Origin: Bdellovibrionales bacterium
Lineage (GTDB): Bacteria > Bdellovibrionota > Bdellovibrionia > Bdellovibrionales > JAGQZY01
DNA length: 64,000 nt
Direction: 5' to 3'
NCBI GenBank assembly: GCA_965218815.1
Contig: CBDCLX010000002.1
Location: forward strand, 693,044 to 757,043
Part shown: positions 20,178 through 64,000 of the stretch, piece by piece
Position numbering within the stretch: the first letter of the stretch is position 1
Layout: each line of letters begins with the position of its first letter
Notes under the pieces: model-generated
Database searches by the model: none
Told to the model about the DNA's origin: nothing
Seen by the model: only the letters and a program-made list of their open reading frames with translations
Program-made: the position numbers and the translations under genes

Positions 20178-20191
20178 AGGGTGAATTAAGG

Positions 20192-37950: not shown

Positions 37951-38213
37951 AAAACAGGAAATGGAAAAACCAAAAAGAGAGAGGACAAATGACCATAGAG
38001 GCTGTTCTTATTTTGACTCTTATGGTGAGTCTTGTTGTTGCCATTACCAGTGGGATAAAGGAGAAAAAATATTTCACCCGCCTCGTGGAAAAGCCTTGGG
38101 TCTATGTGGCCGGAATGATTGAAAACGGCTATTGGGGTCCTGTGTCCAGGGGAAAAGGCAAACATCCCAATCATCCTGGCAGACATGGATCACCCATAGG
38201 AGATTCATTATGA
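37947..38213 (+). CDS. TadE-like pseudopilin
   Basis: RGQMTIEAVLIL prepilin motif. Confidence 0.75.
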   Translation: MKNRKWKNQKERGQMTIEAVLILTLMVSLVVAITSGIKEKKYFTRLVEKPWVYVAGMIENGYWGPVSRGKGKHPNHPGRHGSPIGDSL

Positions 38214-38851: not shown

Positions 38852-38854
38852 AAT

Positions 38855-39346
38855 ATGGAGAACAAAAAAGATTTTTTACAATATTCTGATGAGAAAGGTT
38901 TTGCCAGCATTGAAGCCACTGTTCTTGTGGTTTTGTTTTCGGTCATGCTCTATTACTCTTTTGGTTTTTTTGGTATTGTCCATACGGGTATTGTTCACAA
39001 TATTCATTCCCGCACTTACGCCTTTGAAACTTTTCGGCATCGGGCCAATCTAATGTATTTTCGATCCAATGGAGTCACCTCAAACACGGCTCTTCATTAT
39101 TATAACACGATGACCCGTCTCCATGGAATCAATACAGATACCCAAAACAGGGCAAGCTATCAGACAGCAACGGAGAGGCCCATCTCCCTTGGTCTTGTTC
39201 TGGAGGAACAGGGACGTGATCCGGCCATTCATAATCGCGATATTTACGGAATACCGGATGCAGATAGGAACCAGTCAGTCAGCGTGAATCCTGTGTGGAT
39301 TATGACCATGTATGGTCTTTGTCTTAACAGCCAGTGTGGGAGGTAG
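38855..39346 (+). CDS. TadE-like pseudopilin
   Basis: EKGFASIEATVLVV prepilin motif. Confidence 0.72.
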   Translation: MENKKDFLQYSDEKGFASIEATVLVVLFSVMLYYSFGFFGIVHTGIVHNIHSRTYAFETFRHRANLMYFRSNGVTSNTALHYYNTMTRLHGINTDTQNRASYQTATERPISLGLVLEEQGRDPAIHNRDIYGIPDADRNQSVSVNPVWIMTMYGLCLNSQCGR

Positions 39347-39349
39347 GAA

Positions 39350-40222
39350 ATGGAGAACAATGAAACAAGGACATTATGGATATCCATTGGAGCGGCTCTC
39401 TTTGCGGTGATTCTTCTCTATGGCTGGGCTCAGGATAAAAGGGCCAATTATGCAAGAAAGTTTGGTCAGTCAAAAACTGTGGTGGTGGCCAGGGAGGATA
39501 TCATGGAATTTGAAATTGTGGATGAGTCAAAACTGGAGGTTGTGGAAAAGCCCTCTGATTTTATTGAACCCTTCGCCCTTCAGAATCCCACTGAAATTGT
39601 GGGGCAGATTGCCCTGGCACCTATTAAAAAAGGGGAGCAGATTCTAAACACCAAGCTTGTTTTTCCTGACAAAAGCACGGGGCTTTCCATGCAGATTTCC
39701 CCTGGGAGAAGAGCTGTGACAATACCCGTCAGTGAGGTCAGTGGTGTGGCCAAACTCATAAAGCCCGGAGACCGGGTGGATGTCATAGCCGGAGTGGATG
39801 ATGGAACCGGTTTGAAAAAAGAAAGACGTTTGAAAACCATTTTACAGGATGTTCCTGTTTTGGCCACAGGACAGAGTATTGTGGACAATCTTCCCATCCA
39901 GGTGATTAAAGGGGATGCGGACAACTATGAAATAAGAAATCTAAGAGTGGATAACAATTATGCAACAATCACTGTGGAAGTGAGTCCCAGTGATGCCCAG
40001 AATGTTTTTTATTTGATATCCATTTCAGCCCCCATTAACTTTTCACTTCGTAACCCCAATGATCGTATCAAAATTCCTCTTAAAATTGCTGATATTAACG
40101 ATATTCTCAACCGGGTGAAAGTAAGAACTCCCGCCCAGACTCCAAAACCCATAACTCCTCCGCCACCCAAACCCCAGCCGCCAAAGTCAGGAAGAAAAAA
40201 GGGACGTTATGAAAGGATATAA
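39350..40222 (+). CDS. cpaB: Flp pilus assembly protein CpaB/RcpC
   Basis: VVVAREDI SAF domain, GRRAVTIPV, IKPGDRVDVI, LQDVPVLATG. Confidence 0.9.
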   Translation: MENNETRTLWISIGAALFAVILLYGWAQDKRANYARKFGQSKTVVVAREDIMEFEIVDESKLEVVEKPSDFIEPFALQNPTEIVGQIALAPIKKGEQILNTKLVFPDKSTGLSMQISPGRRAVTIPVSEVSGVAKLIKPGDRVDVIAGVDDGTGLKKERRLKTILQDVPVLATGQSIVDNLPIQVIKGDADNYEIRNLRVDNNYATITVEVSPSDAQNVFYLISISAPINFSLRNPNDRIKIPLKIADINDILNRVKVRTPAQTPKPITPPPPKPQPPKSGRKKGRYERI

Positions 40223-41699
40223 AAGAATTTTTCTTTTTGGTTCCCTTGTTTTTTTATCTTCCCTGTCCTGTTTTGGAATTGAAAAGAATGAATACGGAAA
40301 AAAATATCTGACCATTTATATGGGAATTCAGCATCAGGAGGTTCTGGCTCATCTGCCTCCAGGCTCTGAATTTCTCGGGGATTTCAGATCCATTGTGGAG
40401 GGGAAACTGGATCGGGAAAGAAACACTCTTGTTTTTGTTCCCAAAAAACCCGGTCTTGCCACTCTGACCATCCATGACCGTAAGGGGAAAAAACTTTTTG
40501 AGTATCGGATTGAAGTTCGCAAATCGGATTTGACCAGAGTGGTCCGGGAAGTCAGAGCCTTACTCAGTGATATTGAAGGCATCACCATTAAAATTGTAAA
40601 CAAGAAAGTTATTATTGACGGCAAAGTTCTTATGCCAAAGGACCTGAATCGTATTTATGGAGTGATGAGGCAGTATAATAAACTTGTTGACTCTCTTGTT
40701 GAAATCAACCCCATTGCCCAAAAGAAGATTGCTGAAATTATTGAAAGGCATATTAACAATCCGGATGTTGAAGTTCGGGCAGTCAATGGCAAATTTATTC
40801 TCAAAGGGGTGGTTAATTCAAAAGCGGAAAAGGATGAGGCCTATGTGATTGCCCAAACATATGTTCCAGTCCCTGTTTTTTCTGAGGCTGAGAAGGCGGA
40901 AGTCATTAAAAAGAAGGCTGATGCCCTTGTTATTAATATGTTGAATGTAAGGGCACCACCTGCCAGACCACCGGCAAAAATAATTCAGTTGGTGGTTCAT
41001 TACGTTCAAATGAGTAAAAGATATTTAAAAAGTTCCTCTTTCAGATGGTCCCCCTCCCTTCAGGACAACATTGCTGTGGGTTTCACAAAGGATACAAGGA
41101 AAAACAACGATGGGATTGTAGCTGAAATTTCGGGGGCCATCACTGGGTTGCTTCCAAAACTCAATGCGGCCAGGGAACATGGTTATGCCCGTATTCTGGA
41201 AAGCACATCTGTGACCACCAAAGATGGTCAATCCGGGGCTGTCAGTTCTGAAACCATGATTCCTTATGCGGTCAGGACTCCGGCAAGTGATGGAACAGGA
41301 GTTATTGTAAGCACCCAATTTCAGCCTGTCGGAATAAATTCCAACATCAAACCCAAAATTATCAACCCCCGATCTGACCTTATTGAGTTGAATATGCAGT
41401 TCACAGTGAGTTCTCTTCTTGGGAACACAGATCAGGGCCCACAGATAGCCAAAAACAGCGTTCAGACCATTGTCAATGTCCGTGGAGGCCAGAGTGCTGC
41501 TGTTGGTGGTCTTATCAGAAACAGTTCAGGAACTGATTATAATCCGGATTCCAATCCTGATGCCCTTTTTAATCTCTATTCCGGGAAAAGTTTTCGTAGT
41601 GATAAAACCCAATTTGTGGTTTTTATCACCCCCTTCATTAAGGCTTCAGCCGGTGCCGGAGCAGAGAAAATCAAGAGAAAATTCAGACTTAGCGAATAA
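40209..41699 (+). CDS. cpaC: Tad secretin with BON domain (CpaC/RcpA)
   Basis: Signal peptide, BON region, GQSAAVGGL...FVVFITP secretin end. Confidence 0.8.
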   Translation: MKGYKRIFLFGSLVFLSSLSCFGIEKNEYGKKYLTIYMGIQHQEVLAHLPPGSEFLGDFRSIVEGKLDRERNTLVFVPKKPGLATLTIHDRKGKKLFEYRIEVRKSDLTRVVREVRALLSDIEGITIKIVNKKVIIDGKVLMPKDLNRIYGVMRQYNKLVDSLVEINPIAQKKIAEIIERHINNPDVEVRAVNGKFILKGVVNSKAEKDEAYVIAQTYVPVPVFSEAEKAEVIKKKADALVINMLNVRAPPARPPAKIIQLVVHYVQMSKRYLKSSSFRWSPSLQDNIAVGFTKDTRKNNDGIVAEISGAITGLLPKLNAAREHGYARILESTSVTTKDGQSGAVSSETMIPYAVRTPASDGTGVIVSTQFQPVGINSNIKPKIINPRSDLIELNMQFTVSSLLGNTDQGPQIAKNSVQTIVNVRGGQSAAVGGLIRNSSGTDYNPDSNPDALFNLYSGKSFRSDKTQFVVFITPFIKASAGAGAEKIKRKFRLSE

Positions 41700-41796
41700 G
41701 GTGTCGTCTTTCATTCACATGGATTTTACCTGAATTAAATTGTAAAAATCTTAATATTTTCTTTTGATTTTTCCGATAAAAGTACAGGAGGTTCTT

Positions 41797-43986
41797 TTGG
41801 TTATCAATCCAAACAGTTCCATTATTTCAGTGATCGGGGGCAAGGGGGGTATTGGTAAAAGTGTTTTTACCGCCAATCTGGCTGTGGCCTCTGCAGTTGA
41901 GTTAAGAACCCCCTGTCTTTTGATTGATCTTGACTCAAAATCCTGTGGCGACCAGAATTTTATTACAGGATTCCAAAAACCCAAGACCATTAACGAGTTA
42001 AATGCTTTTACAGGTACAATCAATCCCCGTAATCTGGGGGCTGTTGTTAATATCCACTCCCAGACTCCACTTCACTATCTTGCTATCATAAAAAATCCTG
42101 GAGAAATTTTTATTCCCAATGTCTCAGTGACCATAAAGCAATTACAGACGCTGAGTAATTTTTATAAATACATCTATGTTGATCTCGGTAACAATATTGA
42201 AGAAATACAATCAAGGGTTCTGGAACTCAGCACACTGATTCTCACTGTGACCACTCCGGAAGTCCTGACGTTAAATCAGACTTTGCGTCTTCATAAGGAA
42301 CTGATGGCTGCCGCCATTCCCCAACAGGTGGTACAACTTGTTATCAACAAATACAGCAAGGTGGGTCTGGATCTTCCCGGTATAGAAAAATCTGTTCGCA
42401 AGAAAATTTTGGGTGTCATTCCACAGGATGATGTCACAGCCATGACAGCTCTGAAACGGGGAACGCCTTTTGTGCTTTCAGCGGGTAAAACCGCAATTTC
42501 GGGAAGTTATCACAATCTGGTAAGAACTCTTTCCGGAGGGCTGCTTCAAAAACTCAAGGCTGTTCAAAAACCCAGTGTTTCTTTTAATCAACCCTCTTCT
42601 GAGTCCAATGCCACTGAAAACAAGGGTATGGATGCCAGAACCCATTTGAAAATAACCATTCACAGAAGACTGATTAAGGATCTTAACCTTAAAAATGATG
42701 ATATTAGCAAAGCCCAGGAAGATCCTGAATTGGGAAAAAAGCTTCGGAGTGATGTGATAGTGGCCATTGGCAGGATTCTTGAACAGGAGTCCAGGGGTTT
42801 AAGCAGTGTGGATCGCAAACAGATTATCAAGGAAGTCCTGGACGAGGCCCTGGGTCTGGGGCCTTTGGAAGATTTGCTGGTTCTTGACAGCATTTCAGAA
42901 ATCATGGTCAATGGTTACAATAAAATATTTATTGAGAAAAACGGGAAAATTCAATTCAGTAAGATTCACTTCACCTCCAATGTTCAGCTTCGCAATGTGA
43001 TAGAGAGAATTGTGGCACCTCTGGGCCGTCGCATTGATGAGAAAACCCCTTATGTTGATGCCCGCCTTCAGGATGGCTCAAGGGTGAATGCCGTCATAGA
43101 ACCCCTTTCCATTGATGGTCCTGCTGTGACCATTCGTAAGTTTCGCAAGGATTCTTTTAGAGTTGACCAGTATTTGGCTTATGGTTCCTGTAACAAACAA
43201 ATGGTTGATTTTTTAAAACTCTGTGTTTCCAATGGTAAAAATGTTATTATTTCAGGGGGAACCGGCTCAGGGAAAACCACTCTCCTCAATTGTCTTTCCT
43301 CCTTTATTCCCGTGACTGAACGGATTATTACTGTTGAGGATGCCGCAGAACTACAATTAAAGCAGGACCATGTTGTGCGTCTTGAAACCCGTCCGGCAAA
43401 TATGGAGGGTACAGGGGCCATCACTATTCGGGATCTGGTGAGAAACTCATTGCGTATGAGACCGGATCGAATTGTTGTGGGAGAGTGCCGTGATGGAGCA
43501 GCCCTTGATATGTTATCAGCCATGAATACTGGTCATGATGGCTCCATGACCACTGTCCACTCCAACAATCCAAGAGAAGCCATTAGTCGTCTTGAAACCC
43601 TGTGTATGATGGCTGGAATGGATCTTCCAGCCAAGGCCATCCGGGAACAGATTGCCGGAGCTGTTGATCTGATTGTGCAGATATCAAGGCTTTCTGATGG
43701 AAGCCGGAAAATCATGAGTATCACCGAAGTTCAGGGAATTCAGGGAGATGCCGTGACTTTACAGGATGTTTTTACTTTTAAAGAGACGGGTTACAACAAG
43801 AATCGCAGGATCGTTGGAAAATTTCTGTCCAAAGGACTTATTCCCAAATTCATACAGGATCTTAAGGAAAGGGGAATCAGTATTCCAAAAGATCTTTTTT
43901 CAAACGAGGTTCCGGACAGCCCGAAGGAAAAAACCTCTTCAAAATCCGGTTTACGACGACTTAAGATGAAAAAAACGGGAGGATAA
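41797..43986 (+). CDS. tadA: CpaE/TadZ-CpaF/TadA fusion ATPase
   Basis: N-terminal deviant P-loop GKGGIGKS; C-terminal GGTGSGKT, LRMRPDRIVVGECR, TGHDG; GGAGG RBS before TTG 41797. Confidence 0.9.
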   Translation: MVINPNSSIISVIGGKGGIGKSVFTANLAVASAVELRTPCLLIDLDSKSCGDQNFITGFQKPKTINELNAFTGTINPRNLGAVVNIHSQTPLHYLAIIKNPGEIFIPNVSVTIKQLQTLSNFYKYIYVDLGNNIEEIQSRVLELSTLILTVTTPEVLTLNQTLRLHKELMAAAIPQQVVQLVINKYSKVGLDLPGIEKSVRKKILGVIPQDDVTAMTALKRGTPFVLSAGKTAISGSYHNLVRTLSGGLLQKLKAVQKPSVSFNQPSSESNATENKGMDARTHLKITIHRRLIKDLNLKNDDISKAQEDPELGKKLRSDVIVAIGRILEQESRGLSSVDRKQIIKEVLDEALGLGPLEDLLVLDSISEIMVNGYNKIFIEKNGKIQFSKIHFTSNVQLRNVIERIVAPLGRRIDEKTPYVDARLQDGSRVNAVIEPLSIDGPAVTIRKFRKDSFRVDQYLAYGSCNKQMVDFLKLCVSNGKNVIISGGTGSGKTTLLNCLSSFIPVTERIITVEDAAELQLKQDHVVRLETRPANMEGTGAITIRDLVRNSLRMRPDRIVVGECRDGAALDMLSAMNTGHDGSMTTVHSNNPREAISRLETLCMMAGMDLPAKAIREQIAGAVDLIVQISRLSDGSRKIMSITEVQGIQGDAVTLQDVFTFKETGYNKNRRIVGKFLSKGLIPKFIQDLKERGISIPKDLFSNEVPDSPKEKTSSKSGLRRLKMKKTGG

Positions 43987-43989
43987 TGG

Positions 43990-44886
43990 ATGAATGAGTT
44001 CATGGAAAACTTCTCTCTTGATATTCCACTGCCCGTTCTTATTTTACTGGTTGCCCTGTGCATTTTTACCATTTCTTATCTTTGGATTGACAGACTTTTT
44101 TCTTTTGTCAACGATCAAAGTCTGGGACAAAGAGATGAGATTTTACGTTATCTTGAATTGATGTTTGTGGAAATGGACAAGAACAAGCTGACCAGACTTC
44201 TTATGTTATTGAGTTTTGGTCTTGGGGGACTCTTTTTTGTTTTTTTCTGGCCAAACATTCTGGCGGGACTTTTTTTTGGTTTCATATTCACTCTTCTCGG
44301 TTGGAATATTCCCAAGCAGGTGGTTAAATATCTTTATGAAAAGCGTTGTGACTGGTTCACTAATCAGATGGTGGATGCCATGACCATTTTATCCAATGGA
44401 GTCCGGGCGGGTTTAAGTGTCACCCAGTCCATGGATCGGGTGGTAAAAAATCTAAAAAATCCCATCAGTCAGGAATTTCGTCTTGTTTTATCCCAAAACC
44501 AGCTGGGACAGAGCATTGAGGATGCCTTGACTGAACTTGGAGAAAGAATTCCAAGACCGGATGTTCAGATGTTTGTCACTTCTGTTAATATTCTCAAGGA
44601 AACAGGTGGAAATATGGCAGAGACCTTTCAGGCCATCACATTCACTATCAGAGAAAGACAGAAGGTGGAAAAAAAGATTGAAGCTCTCACGGCTCAGGGG
44701 ATTTTTCAGGGGATTATTGTCAGTTGTATACCCTTTTTGCTGCTTGCCATGTCCACGGCTATTGATCCGGAATATACAAAACCCTTGTTTTCCACAACCC
44801 TTGGCTGGATTGTTCTTGCTGTGGTTGTTATTCTTCAGATTGTTGGTGGTTTTATGATTAAGAAAATTGTGACAATTAAGGTTTAG
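43990..44886 (+). CDS. tadB: Tad inner-membrane platform protein TadB
   Basis: NGVRAGLS, PISQEF, ETGGNMAE. Confidence 0.88.
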   Translation: MNEFMENFSLDIPLPVLILLVALCIFTISYLWIDRLFSFVNDQSLGQRDEILRYLELMFVEMDKNKLTRLLMLLSFGLGGLFFVFFWPNILAGLFFGFIFTLLGWNIPKQVVKYLYEKRCDWFTNQMVDAMTILSNGVRAGLSVTQSMDRVVKNLKNPISQEFRLVLSQNQLGQSIEDALTELGERIPRPDVQMFVTSVNILKETGGNMAETFQAITFTIRERQKVEKKIEALTAQGIFQGIIVSCIPFLLLAMSTAIDPEYTKPLFSTTLGWIVLAVVVILQIVGGFMIKKIVTIKV

Positions 44887-44897
44887 GACTGTTTTTT

Positions 44898-46595
44898 ATG
44901 AGAGTTTTTTTGATCTGTTTTTTATTTTTTATTTCCCTGAACAGCCAGGCTGTGGTGAATATGCGTAATGGCAGTTATACGGAGTCCTGGGTGGATTTTG
45001 TTGATCCCCAGGACGGTTATGAAATAAAAATTCAGCGTTTCTACAGTTCCCGGTCCCTTTTTGACGGTCTTTTTGGTTATGGCTGGTGTTCAGCCATTGA
45101 GACCCGGCTTGAGATTCTGTCTGATGGAACCCTTGATCTTACTGAATGTGGTGGAGGTTTGAAAGTGACTTATTATCCAGGCAGTTTTGATTTCAGAAGT
45201 CCTGAAAAGACAAGTAATACCATTATCACAAAATTAAAGGCGGGTCATAAAATAAAGGAAAAAGATGCTGGAAAATTCAAAACTGAATTGATGAGCAATA
45301 CGAAAATGAGATTTGAGTATGCCATGCGTCTTGGTTTGTCAAATGCGGGTAAAAAAAACAATGGAAAAAATGTTTTTCAATCCCAGGCAAAGGGAATGGA
45401 GAACATCACATTTGATGGTTATTTTTACCAGAGGAAAAAATTTGACGGAGTGGTGGAAAAATTCAACAGAAAGGGAAGACCCATTAAAATAACCAATGCC
45501 ATGGGGGCTTTTATTAAACTGGAATATAAAGGGAATAAACTTTCCTATCTGACAGACAACAAGGGAAGGCGTTTGAATTTTTCCTACAATCAATCAGGCA
45601 GACTGAAAAGAATTTACAATGGCAGAGGTTATCAGGCCACCTATCAGTTTCAAAGTGATAATTTAATTTCCGTAAAAAATATATGGAGCAAGGTCTATAT
45701 GTATGCCTATGACAATCAGCACAACCTGGTTCGGGTGGAGTTTCCTGACAAAACCAGTATTAAAATGAATTATAATACAGCCAATGACTGGATTAAAAGT
45801 TATACAAATCGTCGAGGCTGTCAGGAACAATATAAATTCATGTTTTCAGAGGATGATCCAAAAAACCACTATTCAGGGAAATACACCCGTAACTGTAAAG
45901 ATGAGAAGAAATATCTTGGTCATCATGAATTCTGGTATAAAAAATACAGTTTTTCCAAGGACAAGTACCTTGACCGTGTGAAGGAAAATCTCAATTCGGA
46001 TATTAAGGATATGTATTTTCATCCCTACCTTGGTCGTCCCCTTTCAGTGAAAGAAAATAAAGTCCATTATCGAACTTACAGTTATTACTTCAATGGCCTT
46101 TTGAACAAGCAGGAATACAGGCAATACGATGAGAGGAATAAAGTCCTCAGCTGGCTGAAGTTTATTTTTAAATACGATACGAAAAACATGCGGATAACCC
46201 AGGCTGAAAAATTTGTTCTCAAAGGGGGACAGGCCCAGAAGAAAAGCAGGATTTTTTTCAGTTATAATCCCAGAGGTTTATTGACAAAAGCCCATAGCCC
46301 CAATGGATCTTTTGTGTCGGTGACTTACAAACCCGGAGGCAGAATTGCCAGTCTGAAAAACCATAACAAGGTGGAACTGAACCTGGACTATGAGGCTGGC
46401 AGAAACAAGCCGGAAAAAATAACCCAAAAGGGCCTTGGACAGGTTTTCATCACTTATAACATTCATGGAGATGTTGAGTCTGTAACCGGTTCCGGTCAAC
46501 GGAATGTGGCCTCATCAGTTATAGACTCCTTTCTTGAAATGCTGGCATTTCTTGGCCCCATGGGAGAGCTTCTGAAACTGGGACCTGATTTGTAA
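44898..46595 (+). CDS. secreted YD/RHS-repeat protein (Bd0109-like)
   Basis: Signal peptide, RFYSSRS...FGYGWCS (DUF6531-like), YD repeats, no DPxG toxin tip; directly after tadB. Confidence 0.75.
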   Translation: MRVFLICFLFFISLNSQAVVNMRNGSYTESWVDFVDPQDGYEIKIQRFYSSRSLFDGLFGYGWCSAIETRLEILSDGTLDLTECGGGLKVTYYPGSFDFRSPEKTSNTIITKLKAGHKIKEKDAGKFKTELMSNTKMRFEYAMRLGLSNAGKKNNGKNVFQSQAKGMENITFDGYFYQRKKFDGVVEKFNRKGRPIKITNAMGAFIKLEYKGNKLSYLTDNKGRRLNFSYNQSGRLKRIYNGRGYQATYQFQSDNLISVKNIWSKVYMYAYDNQHNLVRVEFPDKTSIKMNYNTANDWIKSYTNRRGCQEQYKFMFSEDDPKNHYSGKYTRNCKDEKKYLGHHEFWYKKYSFSKDKYLDRVKENLNSDIKDMYFHPYLGRPLSVKENKVHYRTYSYYFNGLLNKQEYRQYDERNKVLSWLKFIFKYDTKNMRITQAEKFVLKGGQAQKKSRIFFSYNPRGLLTKAHSPNGSFVSVTYKPGGRIASLKNHNKVELNLDYEAGRNKPEKITQKGLGQVFITYNIHGDVESVTGSGQRNVASSVIDSFLEMLAFLGPMGELLKLGPDL

Positions 46596-46789
46596 TTCAG
46601 GGAGTGTCATTGTTGTCCCAACCGCTACCACCCATAACCAAAAGCCGCAACACCCGTTATCTTCACTACAATCTGTCAATGATTCATACCCTGAGAGGAA
46701 CGCAGACTATAGATCAAATCCATAAAAACTCAAACCGGATCAATATAAACTTGATTGTGCCTTGGGTCATGACTAATATCCCATTTCCC

Positions 46790-47383
46790 ATGGCTCTTGA
46801 TTTTCCACCAGAAGCATTTACAAGAAAAACCCTGCAGCAGGCTTTTTCCTGGTTGCAGGACCAACCGGAAGAGGTGCGTGATATGATTCATACCCCGGAG
46901 AGACTGGTGAGCCTCTATCAAAAATCCCGGAGACTGAAGGAGAGGGAAGGTCTGGTGAAGTCTGAAAAATTTATCCATGATTTAAAAAATCTTGTGGGTC
47001 ATGAGAGTGCGGGGAACAATGCATTGGCTGACCAAAAGTTATCATCTGACCGGAAATCCTCAAATGAGAAACCCGGGATGGACTCTCCAACAGAACCCAC
47101 CGGTCAGACTTCTGATCAGGACACTCCAAAGCTGCATCCGGCTTCTTTCAGAGAAAAACCGGTGGGCCTGGACACATCCGGTCACCAAAACACCGGAGTT
47201 GGCTGTGAACCTCATAAAAAACCAACAGACCTGAAATTTTCCAACGGAAAATGGATGGATCTGGACCCCCTCAGTGAAAAACGGGTGAATGAGGTGATGA
47301 AGCGATTCAACCTGGATTCCACATCAGAAGCCCTTCGGATTCTGGTCTCCCTTGGCTTTGAAAAATTCTCCCAATTCCAATAG
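46790..47383 (+). CDS. hypothetical protein
   Basis: PPEAFTRKTLQQAFSWL N-domain, disordered middle, FNLDSTSEALRILVSLG C-domain; TTGATT-N17-TAATAT upstream. Confidence 0.65.
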   Translation: MALDFPPEAFTRKTLQQAFSWLQDQPEEVRDMIHTPERLVSLYQKSRRLKEREGLVKSEKFIHDLKNLVGHESAGNNALADQKLSSDRKSSNEKPGMDSPTEPTGQTSDQDTPKLHPASFREKPVGLDTSGHQNTGVGCEPHKKPTDLKFSNGKWMDLDPLSEKRVNEVMKRFNLDSTSEALRILVSLGFEKFSQFQ

Positions 47384-55472: not shown

Positions 55473-57884
55473 ATGAGTGAACGATCTGTTGAAACAATAA
55501 AAAAGCAACTTGTGGAACTGGAAAGAGAGAAAAAAAAGCTTCTTTCTGAACTGTCTTTATTGCAAACTCAGAGAAACCTTGAAGAAGCCAATCATCCTTC
55601 AATTGGAGATGGAGTATCTTCAAAGGTTCCAACAACACCAGATGAAAAAATTGATCTTTTTTTAAAACTCTTTGCTTGCAGAACTGATGTTTTCCCAAAA
55701 TTTTGGGAAAACAGAAAAACAGGCAAGAAAGGATATTCTCCTGTTTGTTCCAATGAATGGGTTCGTGGAGTTTGCGAAAAACCGAAAATTAAGTGTACAG
55801 ACTGCACACATAAAGCCTTTAAACAACTTGATGAAAAATCAATTTCAGATCATCTTATGGGGAAAATAACTCTAGGAACCTACACGATTAGAAATGATGA
55901 TAGTTGCAAATTTATGGCTGCTGATTTTGATGACAAGCAGTGGGAGCAGGATATTATCTTATTTAAAAAAGAAGCCGAAAAACTTGGCATTGATGTTGCC
56001 ATTGAGAGATCCCGATCCGGTTATGGTGGCCATGCCTGGATATTTTTTTCAGAATTTATACCGGCTTCATTAGCCAGACGACTTGGTTCCATCATTATGA
56101 CCAGAGCTATTATGAAATCAACCAGGTTTGATCTTTCTTCGTATGATCGGTTTTTTCCCAATCAGGACTATATGCCAAAAGGTGGCTTTGGAAACCTTAT
56201 AGCTCTGCCACTTCAGAAAGTGCCAAGGCAAAGTGGTAACAGTGTTTTTATTTCTGATAATCTCAAGCCCATTGAAGACCAATGGAAATTTCTATCATCC
56301 ATTCGGACTTTAAGTTATCTGGATGTTTTGAATCTGGTTAATAAAGTTTCACCATCCTTTGATAGAGCTGTCTTCCCTGTAGAGAATGAGAATCAATTAT
56401 GGTCTGAAAACTCTCTTGATATAATGGCTCAACAGATTAAAGATCAGTGTTTTGGACAGGAAATTTCAGCAGAACTGTCATCCCAGCTTTATATCAATAT
56501 TGAAGGTGTGTCTTCAAAACTGGTGGCTGCCTTTAAAAGACTTGCGACGTTTGCAAATCCAGAATTTTTTCAAAAACAAAAAATGAGATTTTCAACCTGG
56601 AATATTCCAAAATACATATTTTGTGGAGAACAAGAAGACAATTATCTCGTTCTACCAAGTGGTCTTTTGGAAAAAGTCGAAGAAATTTGTAAAGATGCTG
56701 GTGCCAGGTTAAATCTTAGAGATAACAGACCCAATCATCATAAGTTTAAAATTTCTTTTAAGGGTAAACTTAAAAAAGAGCAAAAAAAAGCTTTGGAGGA
56801 AATCATTCAGTATGAAAATGGAGTGTTCGTTGCTCCTCCCGGATCAGGGAAAACAGTGGTGGGTTGTGCTGTTATTTCAAAAAGAAAATCATCTACTCTT
56901 GTTCTTGTCCATAGGGCACCACTTCTTGACCAGTGGAAACAAAGGCTCTCTGAATTTGTTAATTTTGATATTAAGAAAATTGGAATTATTAATGGTCAAA
57001 AGAAAAAACCTCAAGGGAAGATCGACATAGCTATGATGCAAACCATTAGCAAGATGGATGAAGATGATCTTCAAAAGTTATTGAATAAATATGAGCAAAT
57101 TGTTGTGGATGAATGTCATCATATTGCCGCTTTCACCTTTGAGTCGATTTTGAAGAAATCCCCGGCCCGTTACATTCTTGGTTTGACGGCGACCCCTTAC
57201 AGGAAGGACGGCCATCAGGCTATTATTTATATGCAATCTGGTCCTATTCGTTATGAAATGTCTGGGGAGGAAATTAAATTTAACTCAAAAAGGGTGATTG
57301 TCAGAAATTCGGATTTTAAACTTCCAGATGAAGCCGGTTTACAACCTCCTATTCACCAGGTTTGGAATCACCTTATCAATGATGAAGGAAGACTTGAACT
57401 TGTGTCAGATGATATTATTGATGCTTTGGATGAAGCCAGAGTTCCCCTTGTTCTTTCCGAGAGAAAAGAGCATTTGCGACTTTTGAAAAAGAATCTTTTA
57501 AGTAAAAATATTTCAGAAAATCGTGTTTTTATTCTTGATGGTGACCTTTCCAAAAAACAAAGAAACCTGATTCTTGATGAAATTAATGTTGCCATAGACA
57601 GAAAACAACCTGTTTGTATTCTAACCACTGGTTCACTTATTGGTGAGGGATTTGATTTACCTGCTTTGGACACCCTGTTTTTAACAATGCCGATTGCATT
57701 CAGAGGAAGAGTCATTCAATATGCCGGTCGTATTCATAGGCCCGTTAAAGGCAAGAGTGAAGTCAGAATTTATGATTATGTTGATCCATGGTCAAGTCTG
57801 ACTCTTTCCATGTTTAAAAAACGAGCAAAAGCTTATCGGAGTATGGGTTATAAAATTGAATCACCTCCAGCAATCAGATGGTAA
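55473..57884 (+). CDS. TOTE-type archaeo-eukaryotic primase domain fused to SF2 (DEAH) helicase
   Basis: ADFDD, SRSGYGGHAW, FFPNQD, GNLIALPL (AEP); PGSGKT, DECHH, TATP, GEGFD, QYAGRIHR. Confidence 0.85.
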   Translation: MSERSVETIKKQLVELEREKKKLLSELSLLQTQRNLEEANHPSIGDGVSSKVPTTPDEKIDLFLKLFACRTDVFPKFWENRKTGKKGYSPVCSNEWVRGVCEKPKIKCTDCTHKAFKQLDEKSISDHLMGKITLGTYTIRNDDSCKFMAADFDDKQWEQDIILFKKEAEKLGIDVAIERSRSGYGGHAWIFFSEFIPASLARRLGSIIMTRAIMKSTRFDLSSYDRFFPNQDYMPKGGFGNLIALPLQKVPRQSGNSVFISDNLKPIEDQWKFLSSIRTLSYLDVLNLVNKVSPSFDRAVFPVENENQLWSENSLDIMAQQIKDQCFGQEISAELSSQLYINIEGVSSKLVAAFKRLATFANPEFFQKQKMRFSTWNIPKYIFCGEQEDNYLVLPSGLLEKVEEICKDAGARLNLRDNRPNHHKFKISFKGKLKKEQKKALEEIIQYENGVFVAPPGSGKTVVGCAVISKRKSSTLVLVHRAPLLDQWKQRLSEFVNFDIKKIGIINGQKKKPQGKIDIAMMQTISKMDEDDLQKLLNKYEQIVVDECHHIAAFTFESILKKSPARYILGLTATPYRKDGHQAIIYMQSGPIRYEMSGEEIKFNSKRVIVRNSDFKLPDEAGLQPPIHQVWNHLINDEGRLELVSDDIIDALDEARVPLVLSERKEHLRLLKKNLLSKNISENRVFILDGDLSKKQRNLILDEINVAIDRKQPVCILTTGSLIGEGFDLPALDTLFLTMPIAFRGRVIQYAGRIHRPVKGKSEVRIYDYVDPWSSLTLSMFKKRAKAYRSMGYKIESPPAIRW

Positions 57885-57899
57885 AAATCACTTTCGCTT

Positions 57900-58165
57900 T
57901 ATCATCATAGACATAGCGTTGGACAACATCCCCTGATGGATTTGTAATCTCTGCTGTGGAACCCAGACGGTCATGGTGGTAGTAATATCTCTGGGCTGTG
58001 AATATGTTATTTGTATGGGGACTTGTCGGTCTTTCCATTACCATCACTTCATCTGTTCTGTCACTGTGGGTGTACTTGGCTTCCATTGTGTTTTGAGAGT
58101 TAAACTCCAGTAAAATATTATCTCTATCGTGAACATAGTTTGTGATCGTGTCATTGACATCTTTT
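57900..58165 (-). pseudogene. Rhs core fragment
   Basis: NDTITNYVHDRDNILLEF...YYYHHDRLGSTAEITN...QRYVYD, paralogous to the two larger Rhs cores and truncated at both ends. Confidence 0.85.
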
Positions 58166-58250
58166 TAATTGATCTATCCATTCTTATACTTTTGCCTTGC
58201 TATGTCCACTCTTTTAAGTGATTTTGTGTTTGTAGTGTCATAGATATAAG

Positions 58251-58673
58251 TCAAAGGGTAATCCGGGTTATTAACATCCAAATTTGATAGGCAAAGGGTG
58301 TATTTTCAATTGGAATAAAGAAGAGATATATTAAAACTCCGATAGAAAAAGAAATCGTTATTAAAGGTTCTAAAATAAAAAATACATTTTTGCCTTTTGG
58401 AGATTTGAGAAATGATATACCTACAAAAAAACCAAAAATGGCACTAATAATAAAAGCTATAAAAGTTAATATTATATTGAGAATATCTATTACCTCATGA
58501 GTAGGATTATACAATAAATCCAAGAGCATCAAAATTAGAAAAACAGTTAATTTCATCATAGGCAATGAAAATAATGGCCGTGTAATTGACAATTTTTTTA
58601 AATATAAAATTGTGTGTTTTAATACACTTAAAAAATAATTTTTCGTTTTTTCATTTGTTTGTATTTGAGACAT
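58251..58673 (-). CDS. putative Rhs immunity protein (membrane, KSPxGK family)
   Basis: Starts 10 bp after the Rhs stop; 3 TM segments; FLKSPKGK...ILEP. Confidence 0.7.
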   Translation of the reverse strand: MSQIQTNEKTKNYFLSVLKHTILYLKKLSITRPLFSLPMMKLTVFLILMLLDLLYNPTHEVIDILNIILTFIAFIISAIFGFFVGISFLKSPKGKNVFFILEPLITISFSIGVLIYLFFIPIENTPFAYQIWMLITRITL

Positions 58674-58682: not shown

Positions 58683-60443
58683 TTAAATAACCGGTTGTTT
58701 TTCATTATTATCCGGTAAAAATTCTTCAAGCCGATGTTCAAGTTTTCTTATTTTTTTCCTTAATGCACTGATCCTCTTTTGCAATTTATCTCTCCTTTTT
58801 TGCTTTGAAGGATCACAACTTGCATCTTCTATGGCTTTTTTCATGTCTTCAATAAGTCCTTTAAGAACAAACTTATAGAAAGCTATTGCTATGATGATTG
58901 CTCCAATTGTAAGTGGTATAGCAACAACATAACTTGGAATAGTCCCATTAGGATCAGTCAAGTTTAAAGAATTATTCTCCACATATCCATACAAATTAAA
59001 ATCTCCCCCTCTAAAACCAATAGGATCAGAACTGATCCACCTTCCAGCTTCTGTGTCATAGTACCTGGCCCTGTGGTAATGAAGTCCTGTTTCAGGATCA
59101 CGTTCACGTCCTGTGAAAGTGTATGGGGTTTTTAGATAATCTGTGCTGGATTCTGTAATAGCTGCTCCGTCCTTGTCGTAAATACTCGTGTTCCCAAAAG
59201 AGTCATAGATGTATCTCTGGACAACATCTCCGTCCAGGTTTGTGATCTCTGTGACTGATCCCAAACGATCATGGTGATAATAATACTTCTGAGTTAAAAA
59301 ACTCTCACTTGTATGTGGACTCTCAGGTCTTTCCATAATCATCACTTCATCTGTCCTGCCACTGTGTGTGTACTTGGCTTCCATCGTGTTCTGGGCATTG
59401 AACTCCAACAAAATATTGCCTCTATCATAGACATATTTGGTTATGGTGTCATTCACATTTTTCTGTATTCTTCTTCCCAGAGCATCGTACCTGTAAGAAA
59501 CCTCACTTGTTGCCTGGGCAATACTACTGGGTCTTCTTGTCACAGAGGTGAGCCTGTTCTCATAATCCCAGGTGTAGGTTGTAACTTGTCCTGTTGCAAT
59601 ATGGGTTTTTTGTGTGAGGTTTCCGTTCCTGTCATAGACATAGGTGTAGGTTTTGTCATTTGTCAATTCATTGTTATCTGAGAATGTGGAATCCACGGTC
59701 TCTTCATCTCTTCTTAACCTGTTCCCTGAAAGATCATAGGTAAAGGTCTCTGTCCCTGTGCCCTGGGGCTTTGTGGCCGAGGTTAACTGATTGTCAGTGT
59801 CATAGATATAAGTCAGATGAGAGTTCACAGTCAACTCTGACCTGACGGTATCAACACCTGTGACATAGTCATTGAGATTATAGGAGTAAACAAAAGAGGA
59901 ATGGGTTTCTATTGTGGTCTCTCCCGAAGTTCCATCCTCGTTTAAAGGGGTTGTTGTCAGACTGTGAGTCAGTGTTCTTAACCGGTTGGGTTTTCCAGGG
60001 GTATAGAGGTATGAGGAAGTAACTCCATTGGGATAAATAGTTCCTGTCCTGTTGTCCAGTTTATTGTAGCTAAACCTAATAGACGAAGGATCAGTGGATG
60101 AGCGACCAATTCTAATGAGTCTGTTACTCTCATCATAACCATAGAAGATCTGATCGGCTCCAGCCACAGAATCATAAACTGATGTTATGTTATCGTTGTC
60201 ATCATAGGAGTAGAAAATATCCACATCGGGAACTGTTCGGGAATTGACTGTTGAGGCTTGTGTGAGGCGATCAGAATTGTCATAGGTAAAAAGAAGATCA
60301 GAGTCAGGGTCTGTGGCCGTGAGAAAATTGTTATTGGCATCATAGGTGAAAGTGTAAGAGCTTCCATCGGGAAAGAATTTGTTTTCAAGACGATTGAGAA
60401 CATCGTACTGGCTGGTGATAATGGCTCCGTTTTTATCTGTTTT
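58683..60443 (-). pseudogene. orphan Rhs cassette: YD repeats, Rhs core and TM/coiled-coil C-terminal domain; 5'-truncated
   Basis: YD repeats, ARYYDTEAGRWISSDPIG...DPNG, then an 86-aa tip; 5' end abuts the inverted OPT fragment. Confidence 0.88.
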
Positions 60444-61301
60444 TAAAAAGAAGGGGAAAAAACAGAACAAGCAACATCATTCCGATGTTCTGGCTTCCAT
60501 AGAATTACCAAGGATGGTTTCCTATATCGGGATTCCCGTTCTTGGCGTTTTTGTAATGATTATGGGAAAATCTTTTTTTGGTATTGATTACTGGCTTTCT
60601 GCCGTTGCTGTTCCCCTTGTTTTTATTTTTTCGATTATGGCGGTAAACTCCACAGGAGTGACAGCCATCACTCCTGGAGGGGTTTTGGGAAAAATGACCC
60701 AGGTCACTTACGCTATCCTGGCCCCTGGAAATATGGGAACAAACTTAATCACGGCGGGAATCACATCTGAAACCTGTTTGAGTGCTTCAAATCTCCTCAT
60801 GGATATTAAACCGGCCTATATGTTGGGAGGAAAACCCAGGCATCAGGCTATGGGACACGCCATTGGAATTGTTTGTGGGGGATTGGTTGCCGTACCCGTA
60901 TTCTATATGATGTTTCAGGGGGATATTTCTCTTTTCACCACGGAAAAGTTTCCAATGCCTGGGGCCACTGTCTGGAAAGCCGTTGCCGAGGTTCTCTCAA
61001 AGGGTCTTGGTGCCCTTCATCCCACAGCCCAGGTGGCAGTCCTTGTTGGGGCTGTGATGGGTGTTGTTTTTGAGTTTTTCAATCACAGAACCAGGGGGAA
61101 GTTTCCCCTTTCCCCTGTGGCTTTTGGGATCGCTTTTGTTTTGCCCTTTAATATTTCTGGCTTATGGGGAAAAAACCTGAAGAAAAAAGATCTTTCCGTT
61201 TCCAGACAATTTTTGAAAACAAAGAGAGCATTGGAGCGGGTATTATTGCCGGTGGTTCCATTGTGGAGATTGCACTGATGATTATGGAAACAGTGTTTTA
61301 A
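60443..61301 (+). pseudogene. OPT-family oligopeptide transporter fragment
   Basis: TPGGVLGKMTQ, LLMDIKPAYMLGGKPRHQ, FPMPGATVWKAVA; N-terminus missing; frame change near 61155 before GAGIIAGGS. Confidence 0.8.
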
Positions 61302-61411
61302 TAATGAATCCAATAGTAGTATCAGTCTTGATTTAATGACTACACAATTGAGTTCAGAAAGAGCTTTCTTGAAGTTTCCGTAAACGAGCATGATTTTCTC
61401 GGATGTGGAAC

Positions 61412-61879
61412 TCACACACATAAGTTTAAAATACGAGTTATATCTCTATTTATCATATCCCAAATCAAAAAAACAGGAGGACTACCCTTATCTCCATAAG
61501 GAATAAGAAAAAGACTTATTAAACTTTCAAGACACAAAAATATTGTTACTATAGGGTCTAAAATGAAGATTATGTGTTTACCTCTTGGAGACTTAAGGAA
61601 TAATAAACCTATAAAAAGTCCAAAAATAGAACCTATAACAAATCTTGTAAGAAATGTTATTGTATCAACTGTACTAATAGGAGAGACTCCGTTAATAAAT
61701 CCTCTTTCTAAACAATTTTCATGCAAATATAAAGAATATAAAATAATAGGAGAAAAAATCATATGAATTATAGGTATTGAAAATACAAACCACATAAAAG
61801 ATGATTTTTTTATAACAATCGTAAATCCATTTAAAAAATCAATTAAAAATATCTTTATCTTTATCTTTATCTTTCTCAT
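61412..61879 (-). CDS. orphan putative immunity protein (KSPxGK family)
   Basis: Close paralog of 61996-62436: SSFMWF.FSIPI, C.ER.F, FLKSPRGKHI. Confidence 0.7.
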   Translation of the reverse strand: MRKIKIKIKIFLIDFLNGFTIVIKKSSFMWFVFSIPIIHMIFSPIILYSLYLHENCLERGFINGVSPISTVDTITFLTRFVIGSIFGLFIGLLFLKSPRGKHIIFILDPIVTIFLCLESLISLFLIPYGDKGSPPVFLIWDMINRDITRILNLCV

Positions 61880-61894
61880 TATTTCCTTTTCTGT

Positions 61895-61971
61895 TTTATA
61901 CTGATCGTGTTTGAATTTTCCGGTTTTCCAATAGGGAAATACCTCGAAAATTCAAACATGATCAGTATAAA
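61895..61971. repeat. MITE-like palindrome with 26-bp terminal inverted repeats
   Basis: TTTATACTGATCGTGTTTGAATTTTC ... GAAAATTCAAACATGATCAGTATAAA (25/26 complementary). Confidence 0.8.
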
Positions 61972-61995
61972 CCTTTAATAAAATTAAATATGTAA

Positions 61996-62436
61996 TTAAG
62001 CTGTACATAGATTTAAAACACGAATTACATCCTGACCTATCATATTCCATAGTTGAAAAATAGGAGACATTTTTCCATTGTTAACAAAAAAGAAATATAT
62101 TAAAGTTCCAAAACATAAAAGTATTGTTACGATAGGTTCTAAAATAAAAAATATATGTTTACCTCTTGGAGATTTAAAAAATACGCATCCTATAAAGATT
62201 CCAAAAACACAACCCATGATAGTTTGAATAAAAAATAAAATTACGTCAATCCCCGGAGGAAAGCCGTTAAATTCTCTTTCTATACATTCACTATATATAT
62301 AAAAAAAATATAAAAAAGTAGGAGCAACTATCATCTGAACTATAGGTATTGAGAATATGAACCACATAAAAGATGATTTTCTCAGATTGCACATAAATAG
62401 AGAAAAAACTGTAATCATGTTCATTGAAAATTCCAA
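61996..62436 (-). CDS. putative cognate immunity protein of the second Rhs tip
   Basis: Immediately downstream of the Rhs stop; 3 TMs; FFKSPRGK...ILEP. Confidence 0.72.
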   Translation of the reverse strand: MEFSMNMITVFSLFMCNLRKSSFMWFIFSIPIVQMIVAPTFLYFFYIYSECIEREFNGFPPGIDVILFFIQTIMGCVFGIFIGCVFFKSPRGKHIFFILEPIVTILLCFGTLIYFFFVNNGKMSPIFQLWNMIGQDVIRVLNLCTA

Positions 62437-62440
62437 GCTT

Positions 62441-64000
62441 CTAAGAAATGGGTGTCATATTTTCAATACCAAAAAGTTCAAAAAGTTTTTCAACATCCTC
62501 TTCTATCTCTTTTTCTAAGGTTTTTATCTTTTGTTTTAATTCTGCAATTCTTTTTTCTCTGTTTGGATTTTTTGGAGGACATGAACCACTTCCATCATTT
62601 TCTAAATTTTCTAAATCTTTTTTAAGTTTATTTAATAAACCATACTTAACGGCAACAAAAAGAGCTGCTCCACCTCCAATTGCAACTATTAAACCAATTT
62701 TAAAACCAAGACCAATAGTCCCATTAGGATCATTAAAATTTATGGAATTATTCCCAACATACCTATAGAAATTAGTATCCCCACTATCAAAGGTGATGGG
62801 ATCAGAAGAAATCCACCTTCCGGCTTCTGTGTCATAATACCTGGCTCTGTGGTACTGAAGCCCTGTTTCAGGATCACGTTCCCTTCCTGTGAAAGTGTAT
62901 GGATTTTTCAAATAGTCTGTACTTGATTCTGTGATCGAAGTTCCATCCTTATTGTAAATACTGGTGTTTCCGAAAGAATCATAGACATAGCGTTGGATGA
63001 CATCCCCGTCCCCGTTTGTGATCTCTGTTGTTGAACCCAGGCGGTCATGGTGGTAGTAATATCTCTGGTTTGAAAAACTCTCACTTGTATGTGGACTCTC
63101 AGGTCTTTCCATAATCATCACTTCATCTGCTCTGCCACTGTGTGTGTACTTGGCTTCCATCGTGTTCTGAGCATTGAACTCCAATAGGATATTACCTCTA
63201 TCATAAACATATTTGGTTATGGTGTCATTCACATTCTTCTGTATCCTTCTTCCCAAAGCATCGTACCTGTAAGAAACCTCACTTGTTGGTTCAGCCGTGG
63301 CATTGGGTTTTGTTATTACCGAAGTTAATTGATTCTCATAATCCCAGGTGTAGGTTGTAACTTGTCCTGTTGCAATATGGGTTTTTTGTGTGAGGTTTCC
63401 GTTCCTGTCATAGACATAGGTGTAGGTTTTGTCATTTGTCAATTCATTGTTATCTGAGAATGTGGAATCCACGGTCTCTTCATCTCTTCATCTCTTCTTA
63501 ACCTGTTCCCTGAAAGATCATAGGTAAAGGTCTCTGTCCCTGTGCCCTGGGGCTTTGTGGCCGAGGTTAACTGATTGTCAGTGTCATAGATATAAGTCAG
63601 ATGAGAGTTCACAGTCAACTCTGACCTGACGGTATCAACACCTGTGACATAGTCATTGAGATTATAGGAGTAAACAAAAGAGGAATGGGTTTCTATTGTG
63701 GTCTCTCCCGAAGTTCCATCCTCGTTTAAAGGGGTTGTTGTCAGACTGTGAGTCAGTGTTCTTAACCGGTTGGGTTTTCCAGGGGTATAGAGGTATGAGG
63801 AAGTAACTCCATTGGGATAAATAGTTCCTGTCCTGTTGTCCAGTTTATTGTAGCTAAACCTAATAGACGAAGGATCAGTGGATGAGCGACCAATTCTAAT
63901 GAGTCTGTTACTCTCATCATAACCATAGAAGATCTGATCGGCTCCAGTCACAGAATCATAAACTGATGTTATGTTATCGTTGTCATCATAGGAGTAGAAA
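62441..64000 (-). pseudogene. Rhs protein (continues past the window edge), frameshifted by an 8-bp duplication
   Basis: Near-identical to the ~59030-60214 core; extra ATCTCTTC near 63482; SSDP...DPNG then a TM/coiled-coil tip. Confidence 0.85.

Follow-up and report, generated by a model that had tools for sequence, protein, structure and literature searches.

A 64,000-nt window from a Bdellovibrionales bacterium (GCA_965218815.1, contig CBDCLX010000002.1, positions 693,044 to 757,043 of the forward strand) closes with the variable part of a polymorphic toxin array of the Rhs/YD-shell type. The array is composed of one main gene (rhsB), one 5'-truncated orphan (rhsA) and one degraded remnant, all on the reverse strand. 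This analysis is concerned with the two short C-terminal tips carried by rhsB and rhsA and with the small membrane proteins encoded directly after them.

The C-terminal part of rhsB has its core at positions 62720..64000 and continues past the window end. The tip-bearing open reading frame (ORF) spans 62441–63472 (343 aa), and the upstream frame reaches the end of the window. Tip2 (62444..62719) comprises the 92 aa after a DPNG motif and ends at a stop codon at 62441–62443. Starting 5 nt past that stop codon is imm2a (61996..62436; 146 aa from a TTG, or 142 aa from an ATG at 62424), a putative immunity gene whose product has three transmembrane (TM)-like segments. A putative immunity paralog, imm2b (61412..61879; 155 aa, three TM-like segments), has no tip upstream of it. 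The rhsA ORF (58683–60470; 595 aa) encodes a 509-aa core without an N-terminal domain (58944..60470), and the 86 aa after its DPNG motif form tip1 (58686..58943; stop codon at 58683–58685). The putative cognate immunity gene imm1 (58251..58673; 140 aa, three TM-like segments) starts 9 nt past the tip1 stop codon. The third Rhs core remnant (57874..58253) is degraded and 78% identical to rhsA residues 337–423. The layout is thus of the toxin-immunity type, with a variable tip, then a small downstream gene, plus orphan cassettes. The tips and the three downstream genes have a GC content of 0.25–0.32 (tip1 0.32, tip2 0.29), while the value for the cores and for the window is 0.42.

Both cores are Rhs cores. 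The Pfam family RHS_repeat (PF05593) matches rhsA with an E-value of 5e-25 and rhsB with an E-value of 1e-10, and TIGR01643 matches as well. The Rhs-associated core family TIGR03696, which is covered over profile positions 1–75 of 76 in both proteins, ends exactly at DPNG (rhsA residues 422–509, rhsB residues 164–251). The matches in the PDB include 26 Rhs, Tc or teneurin-like shells at E ≤ 1e-5, consistent with a YD/RHS shell. The best of them is the shell of a Bacillus inaquosorum teneurin-like protein (BiTLP; 9pt5_A, E = 1.5e-25). The final 205 aa of the core match the same chain with an E-value of 9e-19, with DPIG and DPNG aligned to DPIL and DPSG. In the passages of PMC13018210 on this protease, D2116 and D2140 are described as the catalytic aspartate pair. 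The rhsA core ends in DPIG-x20-DPNG and the rhsB core in DPIT-x20-DPNG. A first-pass annotation of the window had reported that both Rhs cores end in DPNG and are followed by AT-rich tips of about 86–92 aa; this stands, with the addition that the first motif of rhsB is DPIT and departs from DPxG at the glycine.

The alignment of the core to 9pt5_A stops at a Thr-Ile opposite Leu-Ile, and the cleaved chain 9ifo_A ends at that leucine (L2144). The Tse5 shell chain likewise ends one residue past the aligned DPxG, a cleavage that is described in passages of PMC10684867. Since the alignment stops where 9ifo_A ends, the conserved TI is best read as the P1/P1' pair of a self-cleavage site, and most likely does not belong to the toxin plan to which it had been assigned earlier. 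By analogy with the cleaved chains, rhsA and rhsB would cut themselves after DPNG-T. Cut between T and I, tip1 is predicted to be 85 aa long (9.8 kDa, pI 9.8) and tip2 91 aa long (10.0 kDa, pI 6.5).

Tips and downstream membrane proteins

Tip1 and tip2 share 27 of 83 aligned residues (33%) with a BLASTP E-value of 1e-9. Their Smith-Waterman score of 82 was reached by none of 2000 whole-sequence shuffles, nor by any of 2000 shuffles confined within three segments (mean 29.7, standard deviation 6.2). The likeness is therefore one of homology and not of composition. The tips may be considered in terms of a plan that both have retained: a hydrophobic helix, an amphipathic helix, a Cys-Pro element, a run of heptads, and a C-terminal proline. 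Each tip has one TM-like segment, located at residues 4–22 in tip1 (Kyte-Doolittle hydropathy 2.34) and at residues 6–24 in tip2 (2.16), along with two amphipathic stretches. The single cysteine of each tip has a proline within two residues, the surrounding sequences being DASCDPS in tip1 and SGSCPPK in tip2. This cysteine may tether the tip to its shell, as it does in BiTLP, or link two tips; any partner residue in the shell would lie beyond the window. The heptad pattern resembles that of designed coiled-coil peptides in the PDB (E = 0.003–1). An AlphaFold2 model of tip1 has two helices, residues 5–41 and 45–75, that are broken at the Cys-Pro; the confidence is low, with a predicted local distance difference test (pLDDT) score of 64 and a predicted template modeling score of 0.27.

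The tips differ in charge and in the character of the first helix. Tip1 has a net charge of +7 (pI 9.8), whereas tip2 has a net charge of 0 (pI 6.5). The hydrophobic helix of tip2 places G5, G9, A13 and G17 at i+4 spacing, while that of tip1 has only a weak stripe of small residues (S4, A8, T12). A glycine zipper is thus not a feature of the family. With respect to the first-pass annotation, the shared plan at low identity is borne out, as is the absence of a nuclease, deaminase or ADP-ribosyltransferase motif, the tips having no enzymatic domain. The description of a basic coiled coil holds in part, as the heptad helix is present in both tips and the basic character in tip1 alone.

The three downstream proteins are homologous to each other, with alignment scores of 184–370 against a shuffle maximum of 73. 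The imm2b product is 50% identical to that of imm2a, and the imm1 product is 33–34% identical to both. Their invariant blocks cluster near the loop that joins the second TM segment (TM2) to the third (TM3), where the most conserved stretch is the charged motif KSP[KR]GK. The ratio of nonsynonymous to synonymous divergence (dN/dS) among the three is 0.46–0.64. An AlphaFold2 model of the imm1 product has a pLDDT of 55. By analogy with other toxin-immunity cassettes, the three proteins are probably immunity proteins, and neighboring paralogs with three TM segments fit a membrane-acting toxin with membrane immunity.

The history of the two modules can be read from a comparison of their nucleotide sequences. 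Leaving aside an 8-bp insertion, rhsA and rhsB differ by one base over ~650 bp, are then ~85% identical up to DPNG, and fall to ~50% identity in the tips. From the point of divergence to DPNG, the core has a dS of 0.80 and a dN of 0.10 (dN/dS = 0.12). The tips have a dS of 0.90 and a dN of 0.72 (dN/dS = 0.81). The similar dS values suggest that core ends and tips diverged together. An arms race would be expected to leave such a pattern at a toxin end, with dS alike and dN higher in the tip; the high dN is also compatible with relaxed constraint. A diversifying family had been proposed at the outset, and a real pair of diverging paralogs is indeed present.

The tip frames are kept open by selection. 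At the observed nucleotide divergence of 49%, the frame remained open in 0.4% (tip1) and 0.12% (tip2) of 20,000 neutral descendants simulated with substitutions only, and the proportion with an open frame was as low as 0.03% among random sequences matched in composition. In addition, hydrophobic or polar class agrees at 61 of the 76 aligned tip positions. The rarity of open frames in both simulations and the agreement in residue class speak against plain decay of the tips.

Searches for relatives

Neither the tips nor the downstream proteins could be assigned to a described family. Pfam at E ≤ 10 returned only coiled-coil families below threshold, the best being DUF4200 for tip1 (19.1 bits, cut-off 29.7) and DUF3450 for tip2 (18.0 bits, cut-off 32.6). 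NCBIfam identified the Rhs core alone in the two tip-carrying Rhs ORFs and nothing in the immunity proteins. PADLOC had no match for the three queries submitted (imm1, imm2a, and rhsA with tip1), PHROGs gave weak matches to the tips only, and a sequence search of the PDB returned designed coiled coils as the sole tip matches. A Foldseek search with the AlphaFold2 model of tip1 produced no match at E ≤ 10 in either the PDB or BFVD. In the ESM Atlas, the best scores were 0.77 for tip1 and 0.83 for imm2b, both under the threshold for a lead; with this tool, shuffled proteins score 0.8 a third of the time. The earlier description of the tips as an unrecognized family is therefore upheld in Pfam, NCBIfam, PHROGs, PADLOC and the PDB, and by Foldseek.

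Larger protein collections gave the same picture. Within a word-indexed set of 5.8 billion proteins, a search for longer proteins related to tip1 kept one of 192 candidates, which was tip1 itself. A profile of the tips kept two of 2843 candidates and a profile of the immunity proteins three of 1699, all of them from the window. HMMER run on 1,835,955,588 representative proteins returned three matches with E-values of 1e-4 to 4e-4 and none at 1e-10. The three marginal matches proved on inspection to be long coiled-coil repeat proteins and were rejected as relatives. As the representative library holds one protein per 50% identity cluster, this search can miss tips on Rhs proteins that were grouped by core similarity. 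A full-text search of the literature identified no Rhs tip made of one TM helix and a coiled coil within the papers that are searchable.

The scarcity of relatives extends to the genome as a whole. Ten window proteins, among them the isoleucyl-tRNA synthetase, the valyl-tRNA synthetase and the NAD synthetase, are alone in their 90% identity clusters except for one 38-aa fragment. From this, the 3.04-Mb contig comes from a lineage without a close sequenced relative. A scan of rhsA against one genome per species identified 24 loci, with a best identity of 38%; the genome of the window is not among the 24. In a six-frame hidden Markov model search of the 5733 ORFs in these loci, the best E-values were 0.17 for the tips and 0.22 for the immunity proteins.

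The ends of related Rhs cores were also surveyed for tips of similar plan. Of 38 tblastn matches, three were dropped as they fell short of the DPxG end; among the 35 that were examined, one tip ran off its contig, leaving 34 complete tips. Four of the 34 are 100 aa or shorter, seven have an early TM-like segment, and seven precede an ORF that has two or more TM-like segments. The latter two features occur together once, in an unclassified metagenome-assembled genome (locus L002), where a 47-aa tip precedes a 141-aa membrane protein. This tip was rejected as a relative, its scores being equaled or exceeded in 692 and 1019 of 2000 shuffles. Five of the seven tips that begin with a TM-like segment (three in locus L009, plus one each in L016 and L017) continue past this hydrophobic helix into a linker and a larger domain. 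Such leading helices may be entry devices.

Two of these loci are of interest in their own right. In L002 (positions 1–3176), an array with two Rhs ends adjoins ribosomal protein genes, and the tips of both ends are very short. One is a 51-aa cysteine-rich peptide; the 47-aa tip combines a single hydrophobic helix with a Cys-Ser-Asp-Pro-Cys motif. Each tip overlaps or abuts a multi-TM ORF, a plan analogous to that of the window tips, although homology is not detectable. L009 (positions 1–7000), from Parasulfitobacter algicola, has six Rhs core ends in series. Three of its tips consist of a hydrophobic helix, an acidic proline-rich linker and a globular domain, and may present a membrane-entry module in front of a toxin.

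State of the array and its neighborhood

The array is partly broken, a context that the first-pass annotation overlooked when it put the tips forward as a candidate for an undescribed system. An alignment of rhsB with rhsA revealed an 8-bp insertion: rhsB has three copies of the 8-bp unit and rhsA has two (59700–59715). In rhsB the tandem repeat lies at 63475..63497 on the reverse strand (Tandem Repeats Finder: period 8, 2.9 copies, 100% matches), and both gene copies were read directly. The extra unit splits rhsB into two frames: the upstream one soon reaches a stop codon, and the one with the tip is cut off from its shell. Slippage at the 8-bp repeat disrupts the frame of the main Rhs gene, and further slippage could in principle restore it. 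The rhsA gene begins inside the RHS repeats and is without its N-terminal half. Thus neither is an intact full-length gene with an N-terminal trafficking domain; the N-terminus of rhsB lies beyond the window. With rhsB frameshifted and rhsA missing its N-terminal half, the array as it stands is probably silent. Stretches as nearly identical as the ~650 bp shared by the two cores can serve to exchange the end of a main Rhs gene for that of an orphan.

Other features of the region point to rearrangement. An internal fragment of an OPT oligopeptide transporter gene (60454..61158, forward strand; Pfam OPT, E = 5.4e-31, profile positions 337–575 of 623) separates the two Rhs modules and meets the shortened 5' end of rhsA head to head. 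No other stretch of the region is as rich in GC (up to 0.50). The fragment marks a past rearrangement whose other breakpoint is outside the window, and a search for junction repeats around it returned nothing beyond matches of chance length. The spacer between imm2a and imm2b contains a candidate terminator, processing site or recombination scar in the form of an inverted repeat (61895..61971; 26 nt, 96% complementary, 25-nt loop). A promoter and terminator scan of the region remained at chance level.

The third Rhs remnant starts at a 20-nt exact repeat common to both cores and is truncated at the end of a convergent gene for a TOTE conflict-system protein. This gene (55473–57884, forward strand) encodes an 803-aa fusion of an archaeo-eukaryotic primase domain (PF22548, E = 6e-92) with a ResIII/DEAD helicase, and the best PADLOC match of the protein is a CRISPR-associated PrimPol model (E = 3e-79). 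As the 3' end of the TOTE gene overlaps the truncated remnant, the defense gene and the toxin array share one variable spot.

The means of delivery may be considered from the remainder of the window. Of the window ORFs, 53 were scanned against Pfam, and no gene of a type VI secretion system (T6SS) was among them, confirming an observation made at first pass. The presence of LptF/G and a secretin indicates that the organism is a diderm. The closest relative of rhsA with a long flank (L006, Acidobacteriota, 37% identity) combines a DUF1349 domain with six TIG domains and RHS repeats and lacks a PAAR. This domain set and the similarity of the core to a teneurin-like protein, its best match, hint weakly at Sec export and surface display over a T6SS.

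Elsewhere in the window, a Tad/Flp-type pilus cluster (37435–47383, forward strand) encodes a prepilin peptidase, RcpC/CpaB, a secretin, a T2SSF protein and a 740-aa fusion of a CbiA (CobQ/CobB/MinD/ParA) domain with a T2SSE ATPase. Directly after it, a 565-aa protein (44898–46595) has an N-terminus that by eye resembles a signal peptide, a DUF6531 domain and YD repeats; it is followed by a 259-aa protein without a family. It is unusual for a small YD protein to accompany a pilus operon. Immediately downstream of lepA is a tandem of three signal peptidase I (Peptidase_S26) genes (18675–20827, forward strand). An RNase P RNA (12337–12668) and one tRNA (2340–2412) are encoded on the reverse strand.

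Proposed action and comparison with known systems

The most likely reading, with the balance about even between its being right and wrong, is that the tips are a family of membrane-inserting, oligomerizing toxins with intramembrane immunity. By analogy with solved shells, the aspartyl-protease motif of the core would cut after DPNG-T to free a tip of 85–91 aa, which the shell would enclose in unfolded form. On release at a target cell, the tip would insert its N-terminal hydrophobic helix into the cytoplasmic membrane, and the C-terminal heptad helix would gather several copies of the tip. The resulting helical bundle would leak ions or disturb the bilayer and thereby collapse the membrane potential. 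Pore formation and fusion, the modes of action put forward at first pass, are candidate activities. The downstream proteins would probably bind the tip helix within the membrane and block assembly.

Several points weigh against this reading. Toxicity, membrane insertion, oligomerization and immunity are deduced, both carriers are damaged (rhsB by a frameshift, rhsA by loss of its N-terminal half), and the AlphaFold2 models are of low confidence, with pLDDT scores of 64 for tip1 and 55 for imm1. No relative of the tip family was found elsewhere that would demonstrate conservation. A tip dN/dS of ~0.8, taken from a saturated alignment of 79 codons, is also expected under relaxed constraint. A common topology is not obvious, since the basic tail of tip1 favors the cytoplasm and the tail of tip2 is neutral. 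To our knowledge, one TM helix of ~20 residues is less than is present in any proven Rhs pore former.

An extension of the toxin reading, which we regard as rather unlikely in its entirety, would make the tips a separate class of Rhs cargo, the "zipper-helix" peptides. Here the helix would be oligomerized by its own leucine-zipper tail in the manner of a viroporin, holin or spanin, the Cys-Pro would act as a disulfide latch to the shell plug or as a point of dimerization, and a dedicated three-TM family would cap the helix. Rhs shells would then carry bacteriocin-sized hydrophobic peptides in poorly sampled diderm lineages, with delivery free of a T6SS.

Two other explanations, both improbable and to the same degree, deserve to be set against the toxin reading. 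In one, the tip is a membrane-anchored binder whose tail blocks or hijacks a membrane protein or complex, and the three-TM proteins are decoys or competitors. There is precedent in the passages of PMC11630599 that describe ionophore toxins of contact-dependent inhibition (CDI) as requiring specific inner-membrane proteins. Tail charges of +7 and 0 suit surfaces specific to a target or an immunity protein better than they suit a generic pore, and the most conserved block of the three-TM proteins is the charged KSP[KR]GK loop between TM2 and TM3. However, no candidate target is visible, and a heptad helix of 25–30 residues with no other fold would make a thin binding module. In the other, the tips are non-functional relics in a decaying array, perhaps the surviving entry or translocation helix of a larger toxin. 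The array is certainly damaged: rhsB has the 8-bp frameshift, rhsA is truncated, the third remnant is degraded, and part of a transporter gene lies in between. The tip dN/dS of 0.81 would be in keeping with decay. A leading hydrophobic helix with a linker and a globular domain occurs in other Rhs tips (three in L009, and those of L016 and L017), and the glycine-zipper N-terminus of Tde1 serves translocation according to passages of PMC10240207. Yet both frames are open where neutral drift would close more than 99%, the whole plan of the tip is kept in both copies, and the three downstream genes are intact and conserved. There is also no room for a lost domain, as each tip stops 5–9 nt before an intact membrane-protein gene.

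Less probable still is that the tip is a protein of the phage lysis type, on the plan of an i-spanin or a class III holin with a TM helix at the N-terminus, helical segments in the periplasm and the cysteine serving disulfide-linked dimers, and that it acts through large holes or envelope disturbance and not through ion leakage. PHROG 739, an Rz-like spanin family, matches both tips weakly at E = 0.01, phrog_1009 matches tip1 at E = 9e-4, and the nearest Atlas cluster of tip1 (score 0.77) is an unnamed, mostly viral family of 88 aa. Against this, such scores are at chance level for a composition of TM helix plus coiled coil, the Foldseek search of BFVD was empty at E ≤ 10, and no o-spanin-like lipoprotein partner is seen in the locus. 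It would be most surprising of all if the tip were a producer-side membrane anchor or docking tail for the Rhs protein with the three-TM protein as its partner. The hydrophobic helix does adjoin the gene of a three-TM partner, and passages of PMC13018210 describe some YD-shell proteins as displayed on the surface. But in every solved Rhs/YD shell covered by passages of PMC10684867 and PMC13018210, the sequence after DPxG is cleaved and enclosed. A variable tip with a small downstream gene and orphans is the arrangement of a toxin-immunity cassette, and the fast divergence of both tip and partner is ill-suited to an anchor.

Should the toxin reading be true, the tips would be among the smallest Rhs cargoes and would provide a second, sequence-unrelated example of a membrane toxin of ~90 aa with a single helix, after that of the teneurin-like protein. 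YD shells may then commonly ferry peptide-sized membrane poisons that are invisible to domain databases. Two tips and three immunity paralogs also offer a 2 × 3 matrix for studying how a three-TM protein neutralizes a single foreign helix in the bilayer. The practical value is limited, the family being from one genome in which the array is apparently off.

Among known systems, the closest in plan is the C-terminal domain (CTD) of BiTLP. According to passages of PMC13018210, this CTD is a hydrophobic domain of 92 aa with one predicted TM helix, which inhibits growth and renders E. coli permeable to propidium only when exported, and whose cysteine (C2216) is disulfide-bonded to the shell plug. 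The same source describes a small gene after almost all teneurin-like protein genes and lists many small multi-TM examples in its supplementary data 6. The BiTLP carrier is a superfold of FN-plug, NHL and YD-shell. In common with BiTLP as described there, rhsA and rhsB have a YD/Rhs carrier, an aspartyl-protease motif and a predicted cut one residue after DPxG, and the tips, at 86 and 92 aa, have one TM-like segment and one cysteine. The likeness is one of plan only. The TM helix of BiTLP begins ~20 residues into the CTD, whereas the tip helix starts at residue 4–6, and the tips have a heptad helix of a kind that the CTD passages of that paper do not report. In sequence, the phmmer alignments to 9pt5_A (a chain of 2237 aa that contains the CTD) go no further than the cleavage site, and neither tip has a match to this chain in its TM half at E ≤ 10.

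Tse5-CT of Pseudomonas aeruginosa provides the precedent for a non-enzymatic pore former within an Rhs shell. In the passages of PMC9637101 and PMC10684867 on this effector, a membrane-inserting toxin of 149 aa is released by a DPxG-x19-DPxG protease and depolarizes cells, and it is neutralized by Tsi5, an integral membrane protein with two predicted TM regions. Tse5-CT has several TM or amphipathic helices, in contrast to the one TM-like segment of the 86–92-aa tips, and the three downstream proteins have three TM-like segments and not two. Tse5 also has a PAAR-like N-terminus and a VgrG partner, while the window holds no T6SS gene. The Tse5 chain is absent from the best 60 of the 61 tip-profile matches at E ≤ 1 and from the matches to the TM halves at E ≤ 10.

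Tox-WTIP is presented in passages of Zhang et al. 2012 (PMC3482391) as a small, hydrophobic, non-catalytic domain at the end of RHS and PVC proteins that is predicted to be pore-forming, and is defined there by two membrane-spanning helices with RxxR in the first and Wx[ST]IP in the second. The tips have one TM-like helix, no tryptophan, no RxxR in the helix and no Pfam match to the family at E ≤ 10, and identity with Tox-WTIP was rejected. CDI ionophore toxins are polymorphic, are delivered by contact and dissipate the membrane potential, their polymorphic membrane immunity proteins are only ~30% identical within a group, and the CdiA-CT EC93 group is predicted to have a five-helix bundle and a receptor-specific entry domain (as set out in passages of PMC11630599). 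This identity was likewise rejected, the carrier here being Rhs and not CdiA, and the AlphaFold2 model (of low confidence) having two helices with no separate entry domain. The G5-G9-A13-G17 pattern of the tip2 helix resembles the GxxxG zippers that passages of PMC10240207, on the Tde1 N-terminus, tie to membrane permeabilization. In the portions of the sources that describe the glycine-zipper proteins EsxX, Cdz and Tde1, the carriers differ from that of the tips, being LXG proteins of the type VII secretion system, a secreted bacteriocin and T6SS cargo, respectively.

From these comparisons, the tips show no sequence relationship to Tse5-CT, Tox-WTIP, the CDI ionophores or the BiTLP CTD. They lack the features that define the first three, and have no more than the plan in common with the BiTLP CTD. 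The first-pass annotation had regarded the tips as the best candidate in the window for an undescribed system. That view is not sustained, since Rhs/YD shells with a small, hydrophobic, membrane-damaging cargo and membrane immunity are already known from Tse5-CT/Tsi5, Tox-WTIP and the BiTLP CTD. The tips are a sequence family without known relatives and look like a further form of an already known kind of membrane-damaging weapon.

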